A DNA stretch of 64,000 nucleotides from Elusimicrobiota bacterium. GTDB taxonomy: Bacteria; Elusimicrobiota; Elusimicrobia; UBA1565; UBA9628. A program made the translations under genes and the position numbers. Position 1 is the first letter of the stretch. Each line of letters starts with the position of its first letter. Where the stretch lies: assembly GCA_023213235.1 (NCBI GenBank), contig CP096137.1, positions 2,350,723-2,414,722 on the forward strand, given 5' to 3'. Under the pieces are notes generated by a model that saw only the letters and a list, made by a program, of their open reading frames with translations, was not told where the DNA came from and ran no database searches. Of this stretch, positions 7,371-41,097 are shown piece by piece.

Positions 7371-8075
7371 ATGAAAACCCTCGCGCCGCTCTGCCTCCTC
7401 GTCCTCGCCGTCCCGGCCGCCGCCAAGCCGTGGAAGAACGCCCTCGAACTGTCGTTCGTCTCCGCGAACGGAAACTCGAAGACGCAGACGACCTCGGCCA
7501 AGGACTCGTTCTCGTACGACTTCGACGCGCTGACCAGGCTCGAGCTCGAGGGCGGCGGACTCGGAGCGCGCAGCGACGGCCGCGTCACGGCCGAGCAGTA
7601 TTTCGCGCAGGAGAAGCTCTCGCGCAAGGTCACGGACCGGAACTACGTCTTCGAGAAGTACCGCTGGGACCGGAACCTGTTCGCCGGCATCCTGCACCGC
7701 CACGACTTCTCCGTCGGCTTCGGCCGCGAGCTGTGGAAGACCCCGAAGGACCTGCTCATCGGGGAGCTGGCTCCCGGCTACCTCAACGAGGAGCGCCTCG
7801 GCGACAAGCGCCTGAGCTTCGCGTCGGCCCGCGCGTACGCGAAGTACGAGCGGTCGCTCAGCGAGACGGCCAAGTTCTCGCAGGACGCCGAGTACGTGCT
7901 GAGCCTGGCCGACGCGCGCGACGCGCGCATGAACACCGAGACCGCCCTCGTCGCCGCGCTGACGACCTCGCTGTCGGTCAAGAACTCCTTCGTCTGGCGG
8001 CACATGTCGCGCCCGCCGGCCGGCAAGCGCAAGGACGACACGATCCTGTCGGTCGCGCTGATCGCCTCCTTCTAA
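7371..8075 (+). CDS. DUF481/YdiY-like outer membrane beta-barrel
   Basis: Signal peptide; SANGNSKT, alternating beta strands, C-terminal Phe (KKDDT-like end ...ALIASF). Confidence 0.8.
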   Translation: MKTLAPLCLLVLAVPAAAKPWKNALELSFVSANGNSKTQTTSAKDSFSYDFDALTRLELEGGGLGARSDGRVTAEQYFAQEKLSRKVTDRNYVFEKYRWDRNLFAGILHRHDFSVGFGRELWKTPKDLLIGELAPGYLNEERLGDKRLSFASARAYAKYERSLSETAKFSQDAEYVLSLADARDARMNTETALVAALTTSLSVKNSFVWRHMSRPPAGKRKDDTILSVALIASF

Positions 8076-30519: not shown

Positions 30520-31497
30520 AGATCCTCGTTCTGACGCTCAATACGGCGGCGCTGCCGCTCGTGCACCCGGCCGTGACCGAGCGCGTCGCCGCGCAGGCGG
30601 AGGCGATCGCCGCCGGAGGCTACGACGTCGTCGGGCTGCAGGAGGTATGGCTCAAGCGCGACGAGAACGTTTTCCGGCGGAAGGCCGGGCTCGCGCATGC
30701 CTATGCCGGCTCGTCCGGCTTTCCCGTGAGCGCGGGCCTGATGATCCTCTCGCGCTGGCCGTTCGCGCAGACCGAGGAGCGGGTCTTCTCCGTCCTGCGC
30801 CCGTCGTGGCTCAAGATCTCCAACGGGGAGCCGCTCGCGCGCAAGGGCGTCCTGCGCGCGCGCGTCGCGACGCCGGGGGGACCGCTCGACGTCTACGCGT
30901 CGCATCTGCTGTCCAACTACGGGGAAGGGACGTCCTACATGGGCCTGCGCACGGCCGAGCTCTTCGAGCTCGCCGAGTTCGTCCTCGAGCGCTCGTCGAC
31001 GACGCCCTACGTGATCCTCGCCGACCTCAACGCCGGGCGGGGCACGCGCGATTTCGACTTGTTCATGGACCTGCTCGGCGCGCGCGACGCCTGCCGGAAA
31101 GGGGACGCGGAGCTCTGCGGCGACCGCCGCCGGGGCGGCGAGCGCATCGACTTCGTCCTCCTGCCGCCGGGGGCCCCGCACGCCGTCGCGCGGAGTCTTC
31201 GACGGCCCCATTCCCGAGAGGACTCCGCCGCTGCCCTGGTCCGACCATAGCGGCTACGCCGCTTTGCTTAATAGCGCGCACCTTCGCGCGCCCGCCGCGC
31301 CGGACCGCCGCCGGCGCGAGGCCGCGCTCGCGGAGTTCGCGGAGCGCATGACGCGGATGATCGCCCTGCTCGACGCGGAGGGCCGCCGCGCGGCGCGGTT
31401 CCCGCTGTACGGGGCGCTCGCGAAGGCCCGCTACGCCCGGCAGTCGGCCGTCTTGTCCGCGCTGCGGGAGCGCGCGCTGTCGGCTAGTCGGCGTTGA
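30507..31497 (+). CDS. Endonuclease/exonuclease/phosphatase family protein, neutral-sphingomyelinase-like (frameshift ~31190)
   Basis: LTLN, DVVGLQEVW, GLMILSRWP, KG, ADLN, RIDFV, and SDH in the shifted frame. Confidence 0.8.
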
Positions 31498-32644
31498 CGA
31501 CGCGCGTGTCGGCGAGCAGGTCGTGCCAGCCGCGGCGCTGCGGCTCCCAGAACGCCCACAGGTAGCCGAGCCCGGCCGCGTAGCCGGACAGCAGGGACGC
31601 CGCCGCGCGCGTCATGCGCTGCTTGTTGTCGAGCGGCTTGCCGTCCATCGAGACGACCTTGAGCTTCATCAGCTTTTTGCCGGGCGTCGTGCCCCAGCGC
31701 TTGAGGAACACGAGGCTGTAGACGAACCAGGCCCCGGCGAAGAACCAGTCGCGGCCGCGCTTCGAGCCGCGCTTCGCGTCCTCGTCTACTTCCACCTGAA
31801 GTCCCTGCTTGTTGTCGTAGACGACCTTCGTGCCGTCGTCGTTCTTGACGTCGAGATTGAGTCCCTTCACGTTGATCGAGACCTTGCCGCCGCCCTCGAG
31901 CTTCTTGGTCGCGCGGACCCCCGGCCCGCCGTTGTCGCCGAACACCGCCGAGGTCAGCAGCGCGACGAGGATCCCGTCGATGATCAGGGCGCCGAAGCGC
32001 TTCCACGTGGACGGGACCGGGGCGGCGCCCGCGCCGGCGGGAACGGCCGTCGCGGCGGGCATGAGGCCGAACAGGCGCCGCGCGCCGGCGTCGGCCGCCG
32101 ACGCGGACGCGGCGCCGAGAGGCTCCTCGCGGCGCACCTTGTAGACGCGGATCTTCTCGGGGATGCCCTTGAGCTGCATGAGGCCGATCTCGCTCGAGGG
32201 GACCTCGGTCTTGTTCATCGCGAGGTAAACGGCCTCGGTGAACCACACCTGGCCGGCCTCGGCGATGCCCTCGATGCGCGCCGTGATGTTGACGGCTTCG
32301 CCGAACACGTCGCCGTCGACGAGGTTGATCTCGCCGGCGTTGATCGCGATGCGAATCTCGAGCCGGTCGCCGGAGTCGCGGCCCTCGTTGCGCTTGGCCA
32401 GCGCCTCCTGGACGGCGACGCCCGCGAGAACGGCGTTCGTCGGGCTCTCGAACGTCATCAGGAACGCGTCGCCGATCGTCTTCACGAGATGGCCGCCGCG
32501 TTCCTCGAGGATCGGCAGGACGAGCGAGCGGTGCTCGTCGAGCATGGTCTGGATATCGGCGCGCGTCTTCGCCGAGGTCTTGTCGGTGAAGCCCTTGATG
32601 TCCGTGAGGAGGATCGTCAGGTGTCGCGTGGTCGGGGCGGCCAT
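31484..32644 (-). CDS. Class III adenylate cyclase fused to an RDD membrane domain
   Basis: TDIKGFT, KTIGDA, DVFGEAVNITARIE; C-terminal WKRFGALIIDG...TPGKKLMKLKVV...RRGWHDLLADTRVV. Confidence 0.9.
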   Translation of the reverse strand: MAAPTTRHLTILLTDIKGFTDKTSAKTRADIQTMLDEHRSLVLPILEERGGHLVKTIGDAFLMTFESPTNAVLAGVAVQEALAKRNEGRDSGDRLEIRIAINAGEINLVDGDVFGEAVNITARIEGIAEAGQVWFTEAVYLAMNKTEVPSSEIGLMQLKGIPEKIRVYKVRREEPLGAASASAADAGARRLFGLMPAATAVPAGAGAAPVPSTWKRFGALIIDGILVALLTSAVFGDNGGPGVRATKKLEGGGKVSINVKGLNLDVKNDDGTKVVYDNKQGLQVEVDEDAKRGSKRGRDWFFAGAWFVYSLVFLKRWGTTPGKKLMKLKVVSMDGKPLDNKQRMTRAAASLLSGYAAGLGYLWAFWEPQRRGWHDLLADTRVVNAD

Positions 32645-32656
32645 GCGCTTATGATA

Positions 32657-34247
32657 TCACAGGCTCGACGCGTAGGGGGCGCCGAGCGCGGACAGGACGT
32701 CCTGCGCCGCGCGCACGCCGCGGTCGACGGCCTCCTCGAAGATCGACGCGCCCGACAGGTCGGAGTGCGCGAAGTGGATCGGGCCGAGCGGACGCGCGGC
32801 CTCGCGGCGCTCCGCGCCCGTGATGAAGCCCGGCCTCGGCAGGATCATGCCGTGGCCCCAGACCCAGCCGTCGAGGAGCGTCACCGAACCCCGAAGGCCC
32901 GGCAGGCCGCGCTCGAGGTCGGCGAGACACTCCTCGCGCCAGTCGGCGAGCGGGCGGCGGTAGGCGGCCATGCGCCTGCCGTCGGGATCGCCCGTCAGCG
33001 GCCGGTAGTAGGTCCACACCGAGTTCCGGCGGTTCGTCGCGAAGCTTTGGTGTCCCGCGTCCACGTAGCCGAGGCCCTCGCCTCCGTAGATCACGTTGTC
33101 CCACGCCGGCGCGGCGCCGAGGCCGGCGGGGGATTCTCGACCGTGAGGTTCGCGACGAACCACGGGGCGTACACGAAGCCCGACGGGCGCTTGTCCTCGC
33201 GCAGCGGCGCGACGATCCGGCGCGCGGCGAAGCGCGGCGCGCACACGATCGCGCGCTTGGCGCGGATGCGCCGCGTACGCCCGGCCTCGGCGTCGTACCA
33301 CAGCACCCGGGCGCCCCCGTTTTCGATTTCGACGTCGTAGGCGAGCGCGCGCGTGCGCACGCGCGCTCCCAGCGCGTCGGCGAGCCCGCGCACGAGAAAG
33401 CCGTTTCCCTCCGGCCAGACCAGAAACTGATCGTCTTCGCCTTCGCCGCGCGCGGCGTAGTAATGGAGTCCCGCCCACGCCGAAACCTCGGCGAGGCCGC
33501 CGCCGAAGTCGTCGCGGCACGCGTACTCCACGTACCAGCGCAGCCGCTTGGAGCGGAAGCCCTCGCGCGAGAGCCACGCGTCCATCGTCAGCGCGTCGAG
33601 CGCGAGCAGTTCGGGGTCGCGCGACGAGAGCTCCATCGGGATCGCGAACGCGGGCTTGCCGTCCGCCCCGGTCCGGCGGCGCAGCCGCGCGATCAGAGCG
33701 TGGAAGCGGTCGAGCTCGGCGAGGTCCGAGGGCTCCGCGCCGAGGCGGGGAACAGCCCGTCCTGCCAGCGCCCCGCGACATAGAGCCGCTCGGCCGGCGC
33801 GTGGCAGCGCATCGACTCGTCGTACACGGGCCGGCCGCCCTTCTCGCCGACGATGACCTTGAGGTCTCGCAGTATCTCGCGCACCGCGCGCGCTCGCGGC
33901 CCGGGAACCGGGAGGTAGTGCGCGCCCCACGGGTAGCGCGACACCGCGTTCTCGCCCCAGGCCGCGTTGCCGCCCGCGCGGCGCTCGAGGTCGAGCACGA
34001 CGAAGTCCTTGAAGCCCGAGCGCAGCAGCTTCCAGCCCGCCGCGAGGCCCGCGGCGCCGCCGCCGACGATCACGACGGGGACCGTTTCCTCGGAGGACGG
34101 CGCGTCGAACTTCCCGGCGCGCAGGCGGTGGCCGAGCTCGTGGTCGGGACCCAGCAGCTCGCCCGGGATCGCGCGCTCCGTGCGGCACGCGCCGAGCAAA
34201 GCGGACGCGATCGCCCCGCCGATGAACTCCCTACGCGTGAGGCCCAA
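32657..34247 (-). CDS. Tat-exported FAD-dependent amine-oxidase-like lipoprotein (frameshifts ~33745, ~33130)
   Basis: TRREF twin-Arg and LLGAC lipobox; VIVGGGAAG; WGAHYLP; WGHGM; HSDLSGASIFEEA. Confidence 0.85.
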
Positions 34248-35749
34248 TTATCCGCCGTGGTGGATGCGGGCCCACTCGCGCTCGTAGTTCTGGACGAGGA
34301 CCTGGGTGTCGAGGCGGTTGGGCTCGGCGGGGACGCGCGCCATGTCGGCGGGGAAGTCGAACATCCCCCGCGCGATGGCGGGCGTCAGGTAGCGCAGGCC
34401 GGGCGGGAAGCGCTCGGGGACGCGGTACGGGCCGCGCGAGCCGATGACGAAGCCCCACTCGCCGAAGGACGGAACGTAGGCGTGGTACGGGCTCGACGCG
34501 AGGCCGGCGGCCTCCATCGTCGCGACGACGGTCCAGAACGTCTTCCGCGCGAACAGGGGAGAGGTCGATTGGACGGAGACGAGTCCGTCCGGCGCGAGCC
34601 GCCGCGTCAGCAGGCGATAGAACGCCGTCGTGTACAGCTTGCCGACGGCGTAGTTCGAGGGGTCCGGGAAGTCGATGATCACGACGTCGAAGGAACGAGC
34701 GGAATTCTGCAGCCATTTGTAGGCGTCGGCGTTGACGACCTCCATGCGCGGGTCGCGCAGCGCGCCGCCGTTGAGGCGCGAGAGCTCGGCGTGCTCGGAG
34801 AAAAGCTTCGTCATGAGCGGGTCGAGGTCGACGAGCGTGACGCGCTCGACGCGGCCGTCGCGCAGGACCTCGCGCGCCGCGAGGCCGTCGCCGCCGCCGA
34901 GGATCAAGACCTGGCGCGGAGCGCCGTGCGCCGAGAGCGCGGGGTGGACGAGAGCCTCGTGATAGCGGTACTCGTCCATCGTCGAGAACTGCAGGCTGCC
35001 GTTGAGGAACAGCCGCCAGTCGTCCTTCCAGCGCGTCAGCACGATGCGCTGATAGGGGAGGACCTCGAGAAGATCACCTCGTCGGCGTACATGTCGCCCT
35101 CCGCGCGCGAGGCGATGCGCCCGGAGAAGACGAGGCCGAGCACCAGCGCGCACGCGGCCGCCGCGCAGCTCGCCCGCAATCCCGCGCGCTCGGGGATCGC
35201 GTCTCGGAACAGGTGCAAGGTCGCCGCGGCGACGCCGACGTTGAGCAGGCCGAAGAGCAGCGCCGTGTTCAGCAGGCCGAGCTTCGGCACGAGCACGAGC
35301 GGGAACAGCACGGAGGCGAACAGCGCGCCCAGGTAGTCCATCGTGAGGACCTGGGAGACGAGGTCCTTGAAATCGAGGCGATCGCGCAGGATGCGCATGA
35401 GCAGCGGGATCTCGAGCCCGACGAGCGCGCCGACGACGAAGACGACGAGGTAGAGCAGGACGCGGAAGCCCGTCGCGTGCGCGAACGAGAGGAAGAGCAG
35501 CGTCGATGAGAAGCCGCCGACGACGCCGACGAGCAGCTCGACCTGCACGAAGCGGGCCGCCAGCCCCTTCCCGACGAACCGCGACAGCCACGAGCCGACG
35601 CCCATCGCGAACAGGTACGCCCCGATGACGGTCGAGAACTGCAGGACCGTGTCGCCGAGCAGGTAGCTCGCGAGCGCTCCCGCCACGAGCTCGTAGACGA
35701 GCCCGCAGGTCGCGACCAGGAACAGCGAGGCGAACAGCGCGACGGTCAC
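34248..35749 (-). CDS. speE: Membrane-bound polyamine aminopropyltransferase, spermidine-synthase-like (frameshift ~35060)
   Basis: About 7 TM N-domain (CGLVYEL, GLEIPL, DYLGAL); LFLNGSLQF, YHEALVHP, ILGGGDGLAAREV, IDFPDP. Confidence 0.9.
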
Positions 35750-35750
35750 G

Positions 35751-35969
35751 TCAGCCCAGCATCGACGCGGCGATGATCAGGCCCATCGCGACCGAGAGGC
35801 CCGCCATGACGGTGGCCAGCGCGCGGTTCTGCTTGGCGATGATCTCGTTCCAGAGGTCGTAGGGCGTCAGCTTGTCGAAGATCACGAACCAGGCGAAGAA
35901 TACGGCGGCCCCGAGGCCCGAGTACACGACCGCGCCGAGCAGGTGCTGCGCGTCCAGTATGGTCTTCAT
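35751..35969 (-). CDS. DUF350 family membrane protein
   Basis: FDKLTPYDLWNEIIAKQNRALA between two TM helices. Confidence 0.85.
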   Translation of the reverse strand: MKTILDAQHLLGAVVYSGLGAAVFFAWFVIFDKLTPYDLWNEIIAKQNRALATVMAGLSVAMGLIIAASMLG

Positions 35970-36151
35970 CACTTCCCTCCGTAGTATCGATGGTAGCCGG
36001 AATAATGCGAGCGGTAGGAACCGGGATTGTCGCGCACGGACTTCGGGACGCCGGGCACGCGCTCGACGGGCGTGAACCACCAGCCCGTCCACAGCGCCCA
36101 GGCGCCGAAGGCCGCGACCGCGGCCGCGTACAGGCGGTACCAGCGGTTCAT
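35969..36151 (-). CDS. 60-aa membrane-anchored peptide ending in GGK
   Basis: TM segment, then VPKSVRDNPGSYRSHYSGYHRYYGGK; start/stop overlaps on both sides. Confidence 0.8.
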   Translation of the reverse strand: MNRWYRLYAAAVAAFGAWALWTGWWFTPVERVPGVPKSVRDNPGSYRSHYSGYHRYYGGK

Positions 36152-37526
36152 TCGTCGTCCTCCCATTCCTCGGAGACGCGCGGGTGGTCGCTTTCCATCC
36201 AGCGCGAGGTCTCGAACACCGAGGAGCGGAGCGCGGCGAACAGCGGGGGCAGAAGCAGGAGGATCACGCAGATGAACGGCCAGCGCGCCAGCGGCGTGCC
36301 CCGCTTGACGGCCACGCGCAGTCCTAATCGAGCCGAGTCGGTCTCCGGCTCGACGCGCAGGTAGTAGCGGCCGGGGGAACGCTCGGCACCTGCACGGTCG
36401 CGTAGCGGGAGCCCTCGCTCCACGATTCCCCGCCGTCGTACCCGTGGTAGTACGAGAGCTCCCGGCCGAAGTCGAGGGCCTGATCGGTGTCGGCGTTGAT
36501 GAGCGCCAGCGACACGTACGCCCACTGCTGGTCGAGATTGGAATCGAGCAGGACCTCGACGTTCGTCGCCCGGCCGCCCGGCAGTTCGAAGACTTCGGTC
36601 ACGCGCGAGCGCTCGGCCTCGCCGGCGGCGACGTCGAACTCGCCGCGATAGGACTCGGGCGGGTTGCCGGCGGCGGCGGCGAGCCACAGGTAGGCGCCGA
36701 TGCAGACGGCCGAGGCGACGGTGAAGACGCCCCACATGCCGAGCAGCTGGGAGCCCCACGGATTCGGCTGCGCGGGGCCGACGCCGATCTTGGACGGCGG
36801 GGAGCCGGGCAGCGCGAAGGCGGCCCAGATCTCCTCGGGCTCGACGTACTCGCCGGCGCTCCAGACCGTTTCGGCCGCCGTGATCTCCTGAGAGAGCAGA
36901 TACGGAGGGTCGATGAAGTCGCGCATGCGCGCCGCGTCGCCGACGGTCGCGATCCACGGAAACTCGCCGTAGACGGCGGTCGTGACCGGCACGCTCGTCT
37001 GGAAGTGCTGGTAGACGCGGCCGTCGAGCGTCGCCGTCGGCGCGCGGCCGGCGTCGGGGTTCTGTGCGTTCGACATCTCGGGCGGCACGATGTCCTTGTC
37101 GGCCTTCGCGGGAAGATCGGGGTGGAGCTTCTTCGCCTTGGCCGGGACGGCGGCCGCGGGCGCCGCGGGCGCCGCCGGCGCCTCTGCGTCGTCCTCCGCC
37201 GGGCGGCCCGCGACGTTCTCGACTCCCGTCAGGCGGCGCAGGACGAGGATCTCTCCGGCGTCGAACCAGATCGAGCCGCAGGCGCCGCAGCGGTCGGCCT
37301 CGATGCCGCCGTCGTAAGCCTTGCCCGTCTCCATCGGCCGCCGGCAGCGCGGACAGTCGAACCGCGCCGGCGTCGCCCCGACGAGCTTCAACGGCACGGC
37401 CAGACCGTCCTTCGGGTACAGCACCCCGGAGCAGCCGGTGCAATGCTGGACGATCACGCCGGGCGCGGGCTCGTGCGCCTCGAGAGGGGCCTTGCACTTG
37501 GGACAGTCGAAGCGCTCGGCCATCAT
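36148..37526 (-). CDS. Double TFIIB-type zinc ribbon + C-terminal half of DUF4178 + TM/periplasmic domain (frameshift ~36375)
   Basis: CPKC..CTGC, CPRC..CGACGSIWFDAGE; YQHFQTS..YGEFPW..VWSAGEY; ends FETSRWMESD. Confidence 0.75.
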
Positions 37527-37897
37527 CGCTCCTTGACCTTCGTCTCGACGGTCTTGAGCAGGTTCCAGTGGCCGTTCGACTCGACGAGCCAGCGGAAGCC
37601 CTTGTAGGGGTTCCACAGCAGGTACTCGTTCCACTGGTAGATCACGCCGGAGTAGCGCACCGCCCGCGTCTGCCGGCCGATGACCTCGAGCTTCTCGCCG
37701 CGCAAGGTCCCGCGCGCGCCGATCGGAAGCCACGGCGCACGGCCGAGTTTGGCCCGGTAGCGGGCGAGAATCTGATGGCGGGGGTCGCGCGCGTCGAGCA
37801 CCGCGCCGCAGTGCTCGCAGGCGAGGCTGTCGCTGACGCCCTCGGCGCGCAGGACGAGCGGAGCGCCGCACGACGTGCAGTCGAAGCGCGCGCTCAC
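37523..37897 (-). CDS. Zinc ribbon + N-terminal half of DUF4178
   Basis: CTSCGAPL..CEHCGAVLD; IGARGTLRG..WNEYLLWNPYKGFRWLVESNGHW. Confidence 0.75.
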   Translation of the reverse strand: MSARFDCTSCGAPLVLRAEGVSDSLACEHCGAVLDARDPRHQILARYRAKLGRAPWLPIGARGTLRGEKLEVIGRQTRAVRYSGVIYQWNEYLLWNPYKGFRWLVESNGHWNLLKTVETKVKER

Positions 37898-38518
37898 GTC
37901 CAGCCCTCGAACGTCTTGAGCCCGGTCAACGACAGGGCGTCGAAGCCCTGGTACTCGCCGGCGAACACGACGGCCGGCGTCTCGGAGTAGTCGAACGTCG
38001 CGAAGGCGCCCTTCTCTCCGATGAGGTCGGCCGACCGAGCCTTCTCGCCGAGCGGGGGCGAAACGGCAGTTCGCCCTGCGCCGCGAGGTAGGCCGCCTCG
38101 ATGATCTCGCGGACCTCGTAGACCGTCCCCTCGACGTCGACCTTCGCGCCGAGCTTGAGAGCGCGGAGGTCCGGCGCCTTCTGCTCGACCTTGAAGCTCA
38201 CCGCGTAGGTGCCCTGCGCCTCGCCGAGCCAGCCCTGGCGGCCGTCGGCGAAGACGAGGCACCATTCGTTCCAGAAGCCGCGCGGGGTCTTGAGCTGGAC
38301 GCGCCCGACGACGTCGAACGGGGCGGCCCGGTAGACGCCGCGCGCGCCGACCTGAAGGGGGAGCCGTCGGGCTGAAGCTGGGCCGATTCGCCGAGCTTCT
38401 CGACGTCGAGATCCGATCTGCGCACGAGCGCGCGGCAGAACGGGCACACGGCCAGGAGCATGATCGACGTCCGGAAGGGAACCTGCGCGCCGCACGACGG
38501 GCACTTGCGCTCGATCAT
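37894..38518 (-). CDS. Zinc ribbon + DUF4178 protein (frameshifts ~38360, ~38055)
   Basis: CPSCGA..CPFC; VVGRVQ..WNEW..GWLGEAQG; AQGELPF; FATFDYS. Confidence 0.8.
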
Positions 38519-39617
38519 GAAGTTCCAGAGATTATCGGACTTGCCTTGGGCGAAAGCAAGCCGAGATTCTCGGAAAGTCCGGGGTTGCTGCCGTCGAAGC
38601 GCCACAGCCAGGCGTCGAGCAGGTAGTGCGTCGCCTGCGGCAGGGCGAGCAGCGGGATGAGCACGGCCGCCATGCCGCCCGCCGGCGCCCAGGACGCCGT
38701 CGTTCCGAAGAAGATCGCCCCGTGCTCCTTCCAGACGAGGGAGTCCCACACGCCTTCCTCGAGATACGCGAGCGCCAGCAGAAAGCCCGCGAAGGCGAGC
38801 ACGCCGGAGACGGTGGCCTCGTGCCAGCGTTCGCGCCAGCTCCCGTCCTTCCAGGCGCGCCGGCCGTACAGCCAGACCAGGGCATAATAAGGAATCCCGT
38901 GCGCCGCGATGTTGGTGACAGTGAACGCGAAGTCCGAGTTCGTCGCGACGATGCCGACGTACCACGCCGCGGCCGTCGTCCCGATCACGGCGAGCTTGCC
39001 GGGATGGACCTCGAGGCCGTATTTGCGCCGCCAGAGCTGGCGCCCGGCGAACGCCCCGAGCACCGCGGCGTACGCGCCGCCCGCCCACGCGCCCGCCGCG
39101 CGGTTGAGCGCCAGGAAGTCGCCCTGCACGAACCACCAGAATTTGCGCGCGGGATCGGCATGCCAGTAGACGAGAGGATAGAGCATCGTGGCGTAGATCG
39201 CCGCGGCCTCGAGCCGTTGCTCCCACGCAGGCTTCGGACCCTCGAGGTGGGCGTACGCGCGCATGAAGCCGTACTGCTGGCGCACGAAGTGGAACACCGC
39301 GAGATAGGCGAGCGCTCGCCAGAACGCCAGCGGGGAGACGCGGTACAGAAGCGCGCCCACGAGCCAGGCCGCGACCGGGAGATAGGTGTACAGAGCGCGG
39401 CGGCGCGGGAACTCGACTGGATCGAGGTACGTCCTATAAAGCGTGGCGTACACGTGCCCGACGTCGATGAACACGACGAAGATCAGCCAGCCCCACGGCG
39501 GCGTGTCCGGCGCGCGCAGCGCGGGGATCAGGAGCACCGCCAAGGCGGCGAACAGCGGAGGCCCGGCGAACCAGCCGAGGTCGAAGGCGGGGAGTGCAGC
39601 CAGCGGCGCTCCGTCAC
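38515..39617 (-). CDS. Polytopic membrane protein with conserved His motifs (frameshift ~39590)
   Basis: TATGAT-6 nt-GTG 39617; DVGHVYAT, FHFVRQQYG, AHGIPY, THYLLDAWLW; stop overlaps the DUF4178 start. Confidence 0.75.
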
Positions 39618-39670: not shown

Positions 39671-41097
39671 ATGGCCTGGCGTGACCACGTCGAGCCGGAC
39701 TGGTTCCACGAGGCGCCGTTCTACCTCGCGGCGACGATCGCCCACGGGGCCCTGCTGACCTTGAACCCGATGATCAACTGGGGCTCGCTCGCCGCGCCGG
39801 AGAAGGTCGTCCCGATCGAGTTCGTCGCCGAGGTCCCGCTGCCCGCCGTCGTCGCGCCGGCCCCGCCGCTGCCCGCGCCGCTGCCGGCGCTGGCGCCCGG
39901 CGGCGACGGCACGAAGGGCGCGCCCAAGCACGGCCCCGGCAAGCTCGAGGCGGAGAAGGTCAAGCGCGGCGCCGTCGACCCGCCGCCTAAGCCCAAGCCG
40001 GTCCCGAAGCCCGCGGCCGTCAAGTCGAAGTCCGACAAGGCCGGAACCACGGTGAAGAAGGCCGCGGCGAAGCCCAAGCCTCTCGCCCGGCCCGTCGACG
40101 ACCGCGCCGCCAAATTCGCGCGCGAGGCGCAGGCCGAGTCGCGCCGCGTGCGCGCCGAGAAGGACCGCGCCGCGCGCGCCGTCGTCGCCGAGCGGGCGGC
40201 CGCCGCCCGCGCCGACAAGGAGCGCCGCGCCGCCGAGCTGCGCGCCGTCGAGGCCGAGCGCGCCGAGGCCGAGCGCGCCGAGAAATCGCGCCTGGCCGCC
40301 GAGGCGCGCCTGGAGAGGAGCGCCGCGCGGCGCAGGCCCGCGCCGAGGCCGAGCGGCTCGCCGAGGCGCGCCGTCAGGAAGCCGCGCGCAAGGCGGCCGC
40401 GCTCGCCGAGCAGAAGCGCCTGGCCGCCGAGGCCAAGGCCGCGAAGGCCGCCAAGCGCGCGGCCCTGACCTCCGCGCTCGCGACGATGGCCGACCCCGAC
40501 GAGGCGCTCGAGGCCTCCGAGGCCGCGCCCGCGAGCGGCCGCGGCTCCGCGCGCAGGGGCAAGCCCGCGCGCGGCGGCCCCGCGGGCCAGGGCGCCGCCG
40601 GCCCCGGCGCCTCGGGCGACGACGTCGCCGGCGACGCCGGCGGCCTCGGCGGAGGAGCCGCCGAGCTCGCGGGCGCGCGCCGCGCGGGCGCCGCCGCCGC
40701 GCTCGCCGAGTCCACCGACCCCGGCGACGACGCCGGCTCCGGCGGCGCCGACCTCATCGACGCGCCCGCCAAGGGCGGGGGCGACGGCCCCGACGGCGGG
40801 GGCGTCTCCTACTCCCTCGACGGCCCCGTCGGCAACCGCCGGATCGTCTCGCGCGTCGCGCCGTCGAGCCCGGACTGGGTCGCGGTGCGCAATCTCGACC
40901 TGACCGTCATCGTCCGCTTCCAGGTCCTGCCCGACGGCTCGGTCAAACAGGGCGCCGTGATCCAGAAGACCTCCGGCTTCCCCGAGATCGACGCGCGCGC
41001 CCTCAAGGCCCTCTCCAAGTGGCGCTTCCAGCCCGTACCCGCCAAATCCGGCGCCGCGGAAGTGTGGGGACGCGTCTCCTTCCGCTTCACGTCCTGA
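39671..41097 (+). CDS. TonB/TolA-like energy transducer (frameshift ~40315-40340)
   Basis: TM with ATIAHG, Pro-rich and Ala/Lys/Glu helical linker, TonB_C VRFQVLPDG..KTSGFPEIDARALKALSKWRF. Confidence 0.85.

Follow-up and report, generated by a model that had tools for sequence, protein, structure and literature searches.

A lysine-tailed membrane microprotein from operons for DUF350 and a membrane-fused SpeE-like enzyme: a new family within a known but unsolved operon type

A microprotein family within a conserved operon

The subject of this analysis is a small gene on the minus strand of a 64,000-nucleotide stretch of the genome of an Elusimicrobiota bacterium (assembly GCA_023213235.1, contig CP096137.1, positions 2,350,723 to 2,414,722), which we refer to as the window and whose own numbering is used for all coordinates below. 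The gene lies at 35969..36151 and encodes what we call the lysine-tailed microprotein, a product of 60 residues with an N-terminal transmembrane (TM) helix at approximately residues 6-25, the segment VPKSVRDNPGSYRSHY at residues 35-50, a Tyr/His/Arg-rich tail, and a terminal Gly-Gly-Lys; the translation of the interval is MNRWYRLYAAAVAAFGAWALWTGWWFTPVERVPGVPKSVRDNPGSYRSHYSGYHRYYGGK, followed by a stop codon. A first-pass annotation had described a TM anchor, VPKSVRDNPG, a tail, and a terminal GGK, encoded upstream of genes for DUF350 and speE. This description was accurate when the minus strand was read again, including the placement upstream of speE, though the latter occupies two frames in the window.

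The interval is a genuine gene for a single-pass membrane microprotein. The open reading frame (ORF) shows zero insertions or deletions relative to its orthologs, the helix is single, hydrophobic, and N-terminal, and the length of 60 residues falls within the family range of 55-65. The most hydrophobic 17-residue segment averages a Kyte-Doolittle value of 1.67 across 196 family members, with its start near residue 6. Read from the sequence, both ends of the gene overlap a neighbor: its ATG (36151-36149) overlaps the TGA of the upstream gene (36150-36148; GAATGA), and its own TGA (35971-35969) shares bases with the ATG of the DUF350 gene (TGATG). An upstream ATG at 36166 that would give a 65-residue form was rejected, as relatives do not use it and their matches begin at residue 1 of the 60-residue form. 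A lipoprotein reading, for which Cys16 of some orthologs could be cited, was likewise rejected because this Cys is missing from the window copy and from several relatives.

Searches with this sequence revealed a large family. Full-length matches were found in 18 of 41 related genomes, its own included (E values 1e-14 to 1e-39; 52-100% identity), and the 17 further genomes, all of the same order, encode full-length orthologs that are 52-83% identical and in which G59 and K60 are invariant. The positions invariant in the alignment of the 18 orthologs are Y5, W18, G23, V35, P36, V39, R40, N42, P43, G44, Y46, R47, H49, Y50, G59, and K60; when the alignment is extended to 51 rows, only R40, N42, P43, G44, Y50, G59, and K60 remain so. 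The segment that follows the helix in the window copy fits the family motif [VI]P.S[VI]R.[NS]PG.YR..Y. A profile search of 1.84 billion representatives returned 115 matches at E <= 1e-3, among which four long repetitive proteins (P0003, P0060, P0085, and P0091) were judged spurious, their scores being sums of weak repeat matches; a word-indexed search returned 1675 stand-alone clusters. The motif [ST][VI]R[DN]NPG[SAV]YR is present in at least 596 species genomes, which include Elusimicrobiota, Acidobacteriota, Verrucomicrobiia, Methylomirabilota, Wallbacteria, and Eremiobacterota-like metagenome-assembled genomes. For a closer look at gene neighborhoods we used 160 loci, made up of 80 genome loci kept from this motif search and 80 metagenome loci of a second subfamily, which has the motif SVR[QNA]SPGGY and a shorter tail. 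The codons of the conserved residues vary synonymously in loci that were selected by that same motif.

No model in Pfam or NCBIfam matches the microprotein, and the sole Pfam match obtained when all 18 orthologs were scanned with E values up to 10, to a YgaP-like protein, was dismissed as a chance match. Of the 120 clusters whose names were listed, all are called 'hypothetical protein' and all are without a Pfam domain; a protein atlas likewise held nothing for the microprotein beyond unnamed 'hypothetical' clusters. The microprotein thus founds a large, uncurated family that is without a Pfam or NCBIfam model.

Gene order around the microprotein is strict: a DUF4178 membrane protein, the microprotein, DUF350, and a membrane SpeE-like protein of the PRK03612 type, mostly followed by a flavoenzyme. 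The DUF4178 membrane protein is encoded directly upstream in 80 of 80 genome loci, DUF350 and then the SpeE-like gene follow in every one of these loci where sequence continues, and the same order is found in all 42 metagenome loci of the second subfamily that are at least 4 kb long. The PRK03612-type gene was found in 20 of the 41 relatives, and the microprotein accompanies it in all 20 (18 identified by search and 2 by eye), whereas the 21 relatives without this gene gave no credible microprotein match (all E >= 0.01). Two genomes of the same order, G036 and G040, have variant operons: the interval that separates the DUF4178-TM gene from DUF350 encodes a divergent TM peptide of 62 and 67 residues, respectively (7886-8074 of locus L117 and 1068-1271 of locus L118), that ends in RSGK and is without NPG.YR. 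The microprotein occurs only between the gene for the DUF4178 membrane protein and that for DUF350, in operons for a membrane-fused SpeE-like enzyme. Such operons are patchy in the phylum, because a PRK03612-type gene was found in only two of the 201 genomes of a phylum-wide sample, both of the window's own genus.

Constraints on the C-terminus

The first-pass annotation proposed the terminal lysine as a site of modification, and conservation of this residue had been set beforehand as one test of that proposal. The proposal withstands it, as the lysine is effectively invariant: it ends 100 of the 111 short representatives matched by the profile, of which 94 end in GK and 71 in GGK, and the 11 representatives without it look truncated or frameshifted. 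All 160 loci that were fetched encode a terminal GK, and in the second subfamily 77 of the 80 loci end in GGK and 3 in AGK. In most short representatives, 16 residues separate the motif from the end of the protein. Further, a search for fused forms among longer proteins gave five matches, all of them frameshift or read-through products, compared with the 1675 stand-alone clusters; the carboxyl end of the family is therefore always free.

A complication arises from the position of these codons. In the window, G58, G59, and K60 are encoded by GGA GGG AAG (35972..35980, minus strand), in which GGAGG is the Shine-Dalgarno site of the DUF350 gene, 6 nt before its ATG. The start of DUF350 lies between -4 and +6 nt from the stop codon of the microprotein in nearly all of the 80 genome loci, and in these loci the codon of the antepenultimate Gly is GGA in 66 and GGG in 13. 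By comparison, the Gly codons of the neighboring SpeE genes are GGA in 13.5% and GGC in 57% of cases. GGA is even more frequent at this position in the second subfamily (75 of 80 loci, within the near-constant string GGAGGNAARTGATG), and overall it is found in 141 of the 160 loci. Conservation of the Gly before the terminal Gly-Lys is thus mostly explained by the ribosome-binding site that GGA-GGN provides for DUF350. The 'flexible GG linker' of the first-pass annotation is accordingly confounded with an RNA signal, since GGA-GGN spells GGAGG ahead of the DUF350 ATG.

The last two residues behave differently. In the 80 genome loci, each of the four Gly codons occurs at the penultimate position (31/27/17/5), the Lys codon is AAA in 42 and AAG in 38, and the stop codon is TAA in 39, TGA in 32, and TAG in 9. 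Ala replaces the antepenultimate Gly in three loci, all of which keep the GK end, and in two of these (L188 and L193) DUF350 starts further downstream. The variant microproteins of G036 and G040, for which separate ribosome-binding sites (GGGAGG and AAGGAGG) lie in the spacer, also keep ...SGK. Because the Lys and Gly codons vary, and because GK persists where the ribosome-binding site lies elsewhere, the terminal Gly-Lys, with its free carboxyl end, is held by selection at the level of the protein.

Neighboring genes and enzymes

All genes of the operon lie on the minus strand. The DUF350 (YjfL-type) gene at 35751..35969 encodes 72 residues with two TM helices (PF03994, E 7.5e-14, 52.4 bits vs. 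a cut-off of 26). It is followed at 34248..35749 by the gene for the membrane-fused, SpeE-like aminopropyltransferase of the PRK03612 type (PF01564 Spermine_synth, E 5.2e-36), which is spread over two frames with a break at ~35058. An intact ortholog from the same genus, which combines an N-terminal TM domain with a SpeE domain, scores 678.9 bits on PRK03612 (curated cut-off 472) but reaches just 43 bits with the 'fused MFS/spermidine synthase' model; the two pieces in the window score 386 and 253 bits on PRK03612. Invariant columns of the SpeE-like protein include GGGDG, D308, D342, and D360-F-P-D363-P, and its best matches in the PDB are 1uir/3anx, the triamine/agmatine aminopropyltransferase of Thermus, and thermospermine synthase. 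An AlphaFold2 model (predicted local distance difference test score, pLDDT, 85.7) places helices 2-31, 34-58, 63-88, 92-121, 127-180, and 188-207 ahead of the catalytic fold; together with the charges of the loops, these fit six membrane crossings with a cytoplasmic catalytic domain, and also seven. In G026, G028, G029, G030, and G039, ORFs of 666-1224 residues join repeats of the SpeE-associated TM domain to a SpeE-like domain, and these are without the microprotein.

Next in the operon is the flavoenzyme at 32657..34247, which has an FAD/NAD-binding (flavin/nicotinamide adenine dinucleotide) N-terminus and begins with a twin-arginine signal and a lipobox (MGLTRREFIGG...LLGAC); the gene is spread over three frames. 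R6 and R7 are invariant in 40 of 40 aligned orthologs, which were picked by a filter that required RR, and the lipobox Cys is frequent in Elusimicrobiota and in the second subfamily. Top Foldseek matches of its AlphaFold2 model (pLDDT 89.7) are bacterial monoamine and putrescine oxidases and the spermidine dehydrogenase SpdH (E values ~1e-23 to 1e-21). Given the RR signal and these fold matches, the flavoenzyme is a predicted exported homolog of amine oxidases. It is not a constant member of the operon: it does not adjoin SpeE in four loci that keep the full motif of the microprotein, nor in the G036 variant. A rule that the NPG.YR motif accompanies the oxidase was rejected on account of those four loci; among the motif-less variants, no oxidase follows speE in G036, and the contig of G040 stops too early to tell. 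Directly downstream of the oxidase, at 31484-32644, a gene that is syntenic in loci of the same genus encodes an adenylate/guanylate cyclase domain fused to an RDD membrane domain.

Upstream of the microprotein, 36148..37532 (start approximate) encodes the DUF4178-TM protein, which consists of two Zn ribbons, DUF4178, a TM helix, a domain of ~120 residues, and a second TM helix (PF13453 and PF13785; frameshift at ~36374). Its tail ends RW.ESDHP...EEWEDDE, and its relatives have a conserved FE..RW.ESD[HY] segment near the end, usually with an acidic tip. The codons of this tip in the window (TGG GAG GAC GAC GAA; 36148-36170) contain GGGAGGA just before the ATG of the microprotein, and conservation of the tip may also partly reflect a ribosome-binding site. 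Two further genes encode Zn-ribbon and DUF4178 proteins, a small one of 124 residues at 37523..37897 and one at 37894..38504 that has ~209 residues in orthologs and is spread over two frames here. A multi-pass membrane protein without a family match, encoded at 38515..39543 with a start that is perhaps further upstream, is syntenic with the operon. It changes place between groups: in Elusimicrobiota it precedes the DUF4178 genes, and in the second subfamily (L148, L153, L160, and L199) it follows the oxidase. Beyond it, on the plus strand, the guanine plus cytosine content rises to as much as 80% at 40000-41000 over a low-complexity coding stretch rich in Ala, Pro, Arg, and Glu, whose end (...WRFQPV...GRVSFRFTS) resembles a TonB-type C-terminus.

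Several of these genes are broken in the window. It takes two or three frames to cover each of the speE, flavoenzyme, and DUF4178 genes, although ortholog copies are intact, and across 32657-38510 frameshifts affect most genes of the operon. When 5.9 kb of the operon are aligned with a same-genus ortholog, the uncompensated shifts that were read fall at single-base losses in runs of C, for example at ~35058, ~36374, ~33751, and ~33126; at ~35058, in speE, the window has C4 where the ortholog has C5. Because the orthologs are intact and the losses fall in C homopolymers, we read the frameshifts as probable uncorrected errors of long-read assembly. Such errors would also explain why the genome, a single contig of 3.8 Mb, reaches a marker completeness of only 83.6%.

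An aminopropyltransferase depends on decarboxylated S-adenosylmethionine (dcSAM), and a source for it lies elsewhere in the genome. Outside the window (G000:C1:3608598-3610111; L116, L109), the gene directly upstream of a canonical SpeE encodes a class-2 S-adenosylmethionine decarboxylase (AdoMetDC) of the 'eukaryote-type' (PF01536, E 1.7e-63); class-1 AdoMetDC (PF02675) was not found in this genome. In G009, a PF02675 gene lies ~5 kb from the microprotein, on the same contig.

Possible roles of the microprotein

Work by Li, Kurihara, Kim, Liang and Michael (Biochem J, 2019) is said to have described clusters of AdoMetDC, a membrane-fused protein resembling spermidine synthase (SpdSyn), and DUF350, in which the fusion proteins reportedly make no spermidine and no acceptor is named. 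The present operon resembles those clusters, with a membrane-fused SpdSyn-like gene beside DUF350 in genomes that have AdoMetDC, in this case of class 2; the difference is that a candidate acceptor is pointed out here. More recently, the passages of Ravi et al. (mSystems 2024, PMC11237479) that deal with such systems describe operons of a spermine/spermidine-synthase-like protein fused to seven TM helices (7TM), with DUF350 (YjfL), DUF4178, and a 'Ctha_1186' lipoprotein, including variants with AdoMetDC and polyamine oxidase, among them PspA-free variants with the oxidase. The core is shared with the operon in the window, namely the membrane-fused SpeE-like protein, DUF350, DUF4178, and, in one variant, an amine oxidase, whereas the window is without the PspA/CesT pair. 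With reference to Li et al. 2019, those passages suggest that polyamines 'or aminopropylation of other substrates' are monitored, and so share the question of what is aminopropylated. The extra proteins they name are DUF350, the 'Ctha_1186' lipoprotein, and DUF4178, with no Lys-tailed small TM protein among them, although the supplementary tables might list one. A full-text literature search by operon terms, not by peptide sequence, returned no publication on such a peptide, a weak sign that it is unpublished.

Averaged over the 196 family members, 1.35 K/R and 0.05 D/E are found in the N-terminal flank of the microprotein (~4.7 residues), the first 15 residues of the tail have a net charge of ~0, and the whole tail has 6.6 K/R and 2.7 D/E, along with 1.8 His and 4.2 Tyr. 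Judged by these charges, an N-in/C-out orientation, with the tail outside the cytoplasm, is weakly favored.

Our leading interpretation, held at somewhat less than even confidence, is that the microprotein is a stoichiometric small subunit with a docking or regulatory role, whose tail docks the terminal Lys in a charged pocket of a partner. The DUF4178-TM protein, DUF350, and the SpeE-like enzyme would form a complex in which the Trp-rich helix of the microprotein anchors it in the bilayer, its extended basic and aromatic tail docks on a partner, and the terminal Lys, with both its amine and its free carboxylate, enters the pocket. Once docked, the Lys would stabilize, gate, or report on the complex and would not be consumed. 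Among operon-encoded proteins of 30-60 residues with a single TM helix, the typical role, as for KdpF, CydX, and AcrZ, is that of an accessory subunit to the neighboring membrane machine. The microprotein resembles these in its size, its single TM helix, and a gene translationally coupled within the operon of a membrane machine, but they have no sequence relation to it and are without a long conserved soluble tail or an invariant C-terminal residue. We counted the overlap with DUF350 and the fixed position of the gene (80/80 and 42/42 loci) in favor of a subunit, along with the co-occurrence with the PRK03612-type gene among the 41 relatives, the free C-terminus, and the selection on Gly-Lys at the protein level. 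A complex prediction for the SpeE-like protein, DUF350, and the microprotein scored 0.02 relative to a mark of 0.32, and, as the fold of the microprotein itself was uncertain in it, was weighed neither way.

Several points weigh against a subunit of this kind. None of the tools used gave binding of the microprotein to a partner, and genomics cannot name the partner, because the association with DUF350, with the DUF4178-TM protein, and with SpeE is equally strict. The topology is ambiguous, as the charge of the N-terminal flank favors N-in/C-out but the whole tail carries 6.6 K/R. Further, it is not obvious why a subunit with a purely structural role would require its last residue always to be Lys and to stand at a nearly constant spacing from the motif, an arrangement that fits a residue entering an active site.

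That last point leads to the alternative that comes next, possible but in our view unlikely, in which the microprotein is an acceptor or carrier of aminopropyl groups. The SpeE-like domain would move one or more of these from dcSAM to the epsilon-amine of the terminal Lys, each adding 57 Da, and the oxidase, where present, would trim or remove the chain. Several observations point this way: the Lys is invariant on a free C-terminus and at a near-fixed distance from the motif; the microprotein co-occurs strictly with the PRK03612-type enzyme (20/20 relatives with it vs. 0/21 without); the enzyme retains the dcSAM-binding and catalytic motifs GGGDG, D308, D342, and D360-x-x-D363-P; and dcSAM could be supplied by PF01536 in the window's own genome and by the PF02675 gene ~5 kb away in G009. 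The passages of PMC11237479 also treat the substrate of the enzyme family as unknown, and their 'aminopropylation of other substrates', for which Li et al. 2019 is cited, is named as something that such operons may monitor. Set against this, both Asp of D-x-x-D-P are kept, as in enzymes that use diamines or agmatine, and a distal anchor for a positive group is ill-suited to the carboxylate or backbone of a Lys. The weakly favored N-in/C-out topology would put the Lys outside, with the dcSAM-using domain expected inside; the oxidase is predicted to be exported and is dispensable in some operons; and one-to-one translational coupling suits a subunit or a carrier better than a substrate that is consumed.

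The first-pass annotation had proposed such an aminopropylated Lys, followed by its oxidation by the flavoenzyme. The first step stands in part, with Lys conservation, the tie to the operon, the supply of dcSAM, and the correct mass of +57 Da for an aminopropyl group in its favor and the retained diamine-type D-x-x-D-P motif against it. The second cannot be general, because in some operons (the four full-motif loci and G036) the oxidase does not adjoin SpeE, and because an enzyme with an invariant twin-arginine export signal and a dcSAM-using domain expected in the cytoplasm would lie on opposite sides of the membrane. A fuller version, in which the microprotein is a membrane-tethered carrier whose C-terminal Lys is aminopropylated once or repeatedly, with the exported oxidase trimming or erasing the protein-bound polyamine, seems to us a shade less likely still. 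Precedents exist for its chemistry. Hypusine on eIF5A is a lysine alkylated from a polyamine, lysines of diatom silaffins carry propylamine chains, and N-alkyl-lysine within a peptide is a substrate of the flavin amine oxidase LSD1; these show that a protein Lys can serve as an amine acceptor and that the amine-oxidase fold can act on alkyl-lysine, although the enzymes and organisms differ. The LysW/ArgW amino-group carriers are likewise tiny proteins encoded in the operon of their pathway. LysW carries a pathway intermediate on its C-terminal residue, a Glu, and has a Zn ribbon and an ATP-grasp ligase; the microprotein has instead a Lys end and a membrane anchor, and its lack of Cys4 and the absence of an ATP-grasp gene from the operon, together with the terminal Lys, rule out a carrier of the LysW type.

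It is improbable, though worth stating, that the tail is an envelope-side sensor or a metal- or ligand-binding element, in which the His/Tyr/Arg-rich sequence outside the membrane would bind a metal, a polyamine-derived aldehyde, or the ~120-residue domain, or would meet the exported oxidase. The N-terminal flank resembles a signal anchor, the tail has the His and Tyr content given above, the oxidase is predicted to be exported by the twin-arginine route, often as a lipoprotein, and the ~120-residue domain of the DUF4178-TM protein, flanked by its two TM helices, is assumed to face the periplasm. For a related operon, the passages of PMC11237479 propose metal chelation by an analogous DUF1190 lipoprotein. 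However, outside the order the His positions are not kept in the 51-row alignment, and some operons with the full motif have no oxidase.

Least probable of the four is that the ORF is mainly a translational device, a relay ORF or a polyamine-sensing nascent peptide that couples or regulates translation of DUF350 and speE and whose conserved end reflects RNA signals: the ATGA and TGATG overlaps, the GGAGG in the last codons at an ideal distance from the DUF350 start, and the conserved residues that known arrest peptides have just before the stop codon would suit it, but the TM helix and the 16-residue motif are conserved as amino acids while their codons vary synonymously, Gly-Lys is kept even in operons with a separate ribosome-binding site, and all three stop codons are in use. 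What probability remains lies with readings other than these four.

What has been found is a new family within a known but unsolved operon type, and the finding is interesting yet unproven as to function. It carries a caution for similar work: where genes are tightly packed in an operon, conservation at the C-terminus of one protein can mirror the start signal of the next gene, as the dual coding of Gly-Gly shows here. If the carrier reading were true, the substrate that has long been missing for the DUF350-linked SpdSyn-like enzymes would be in hand, and bacteria would have a write/erase cycle of lysine aminopropylation. The operon of membrane-fused SpdSyn-like protein, DUF350, and DUF4178 is widespread, with the motif alone in the at least 596 species genomes noted above, and under any model an obligately co-encoded microprotein with an invariant, free C-terminal Lys offers a concrete molecule for mass spectrometry and a handle for pull-down experiments.

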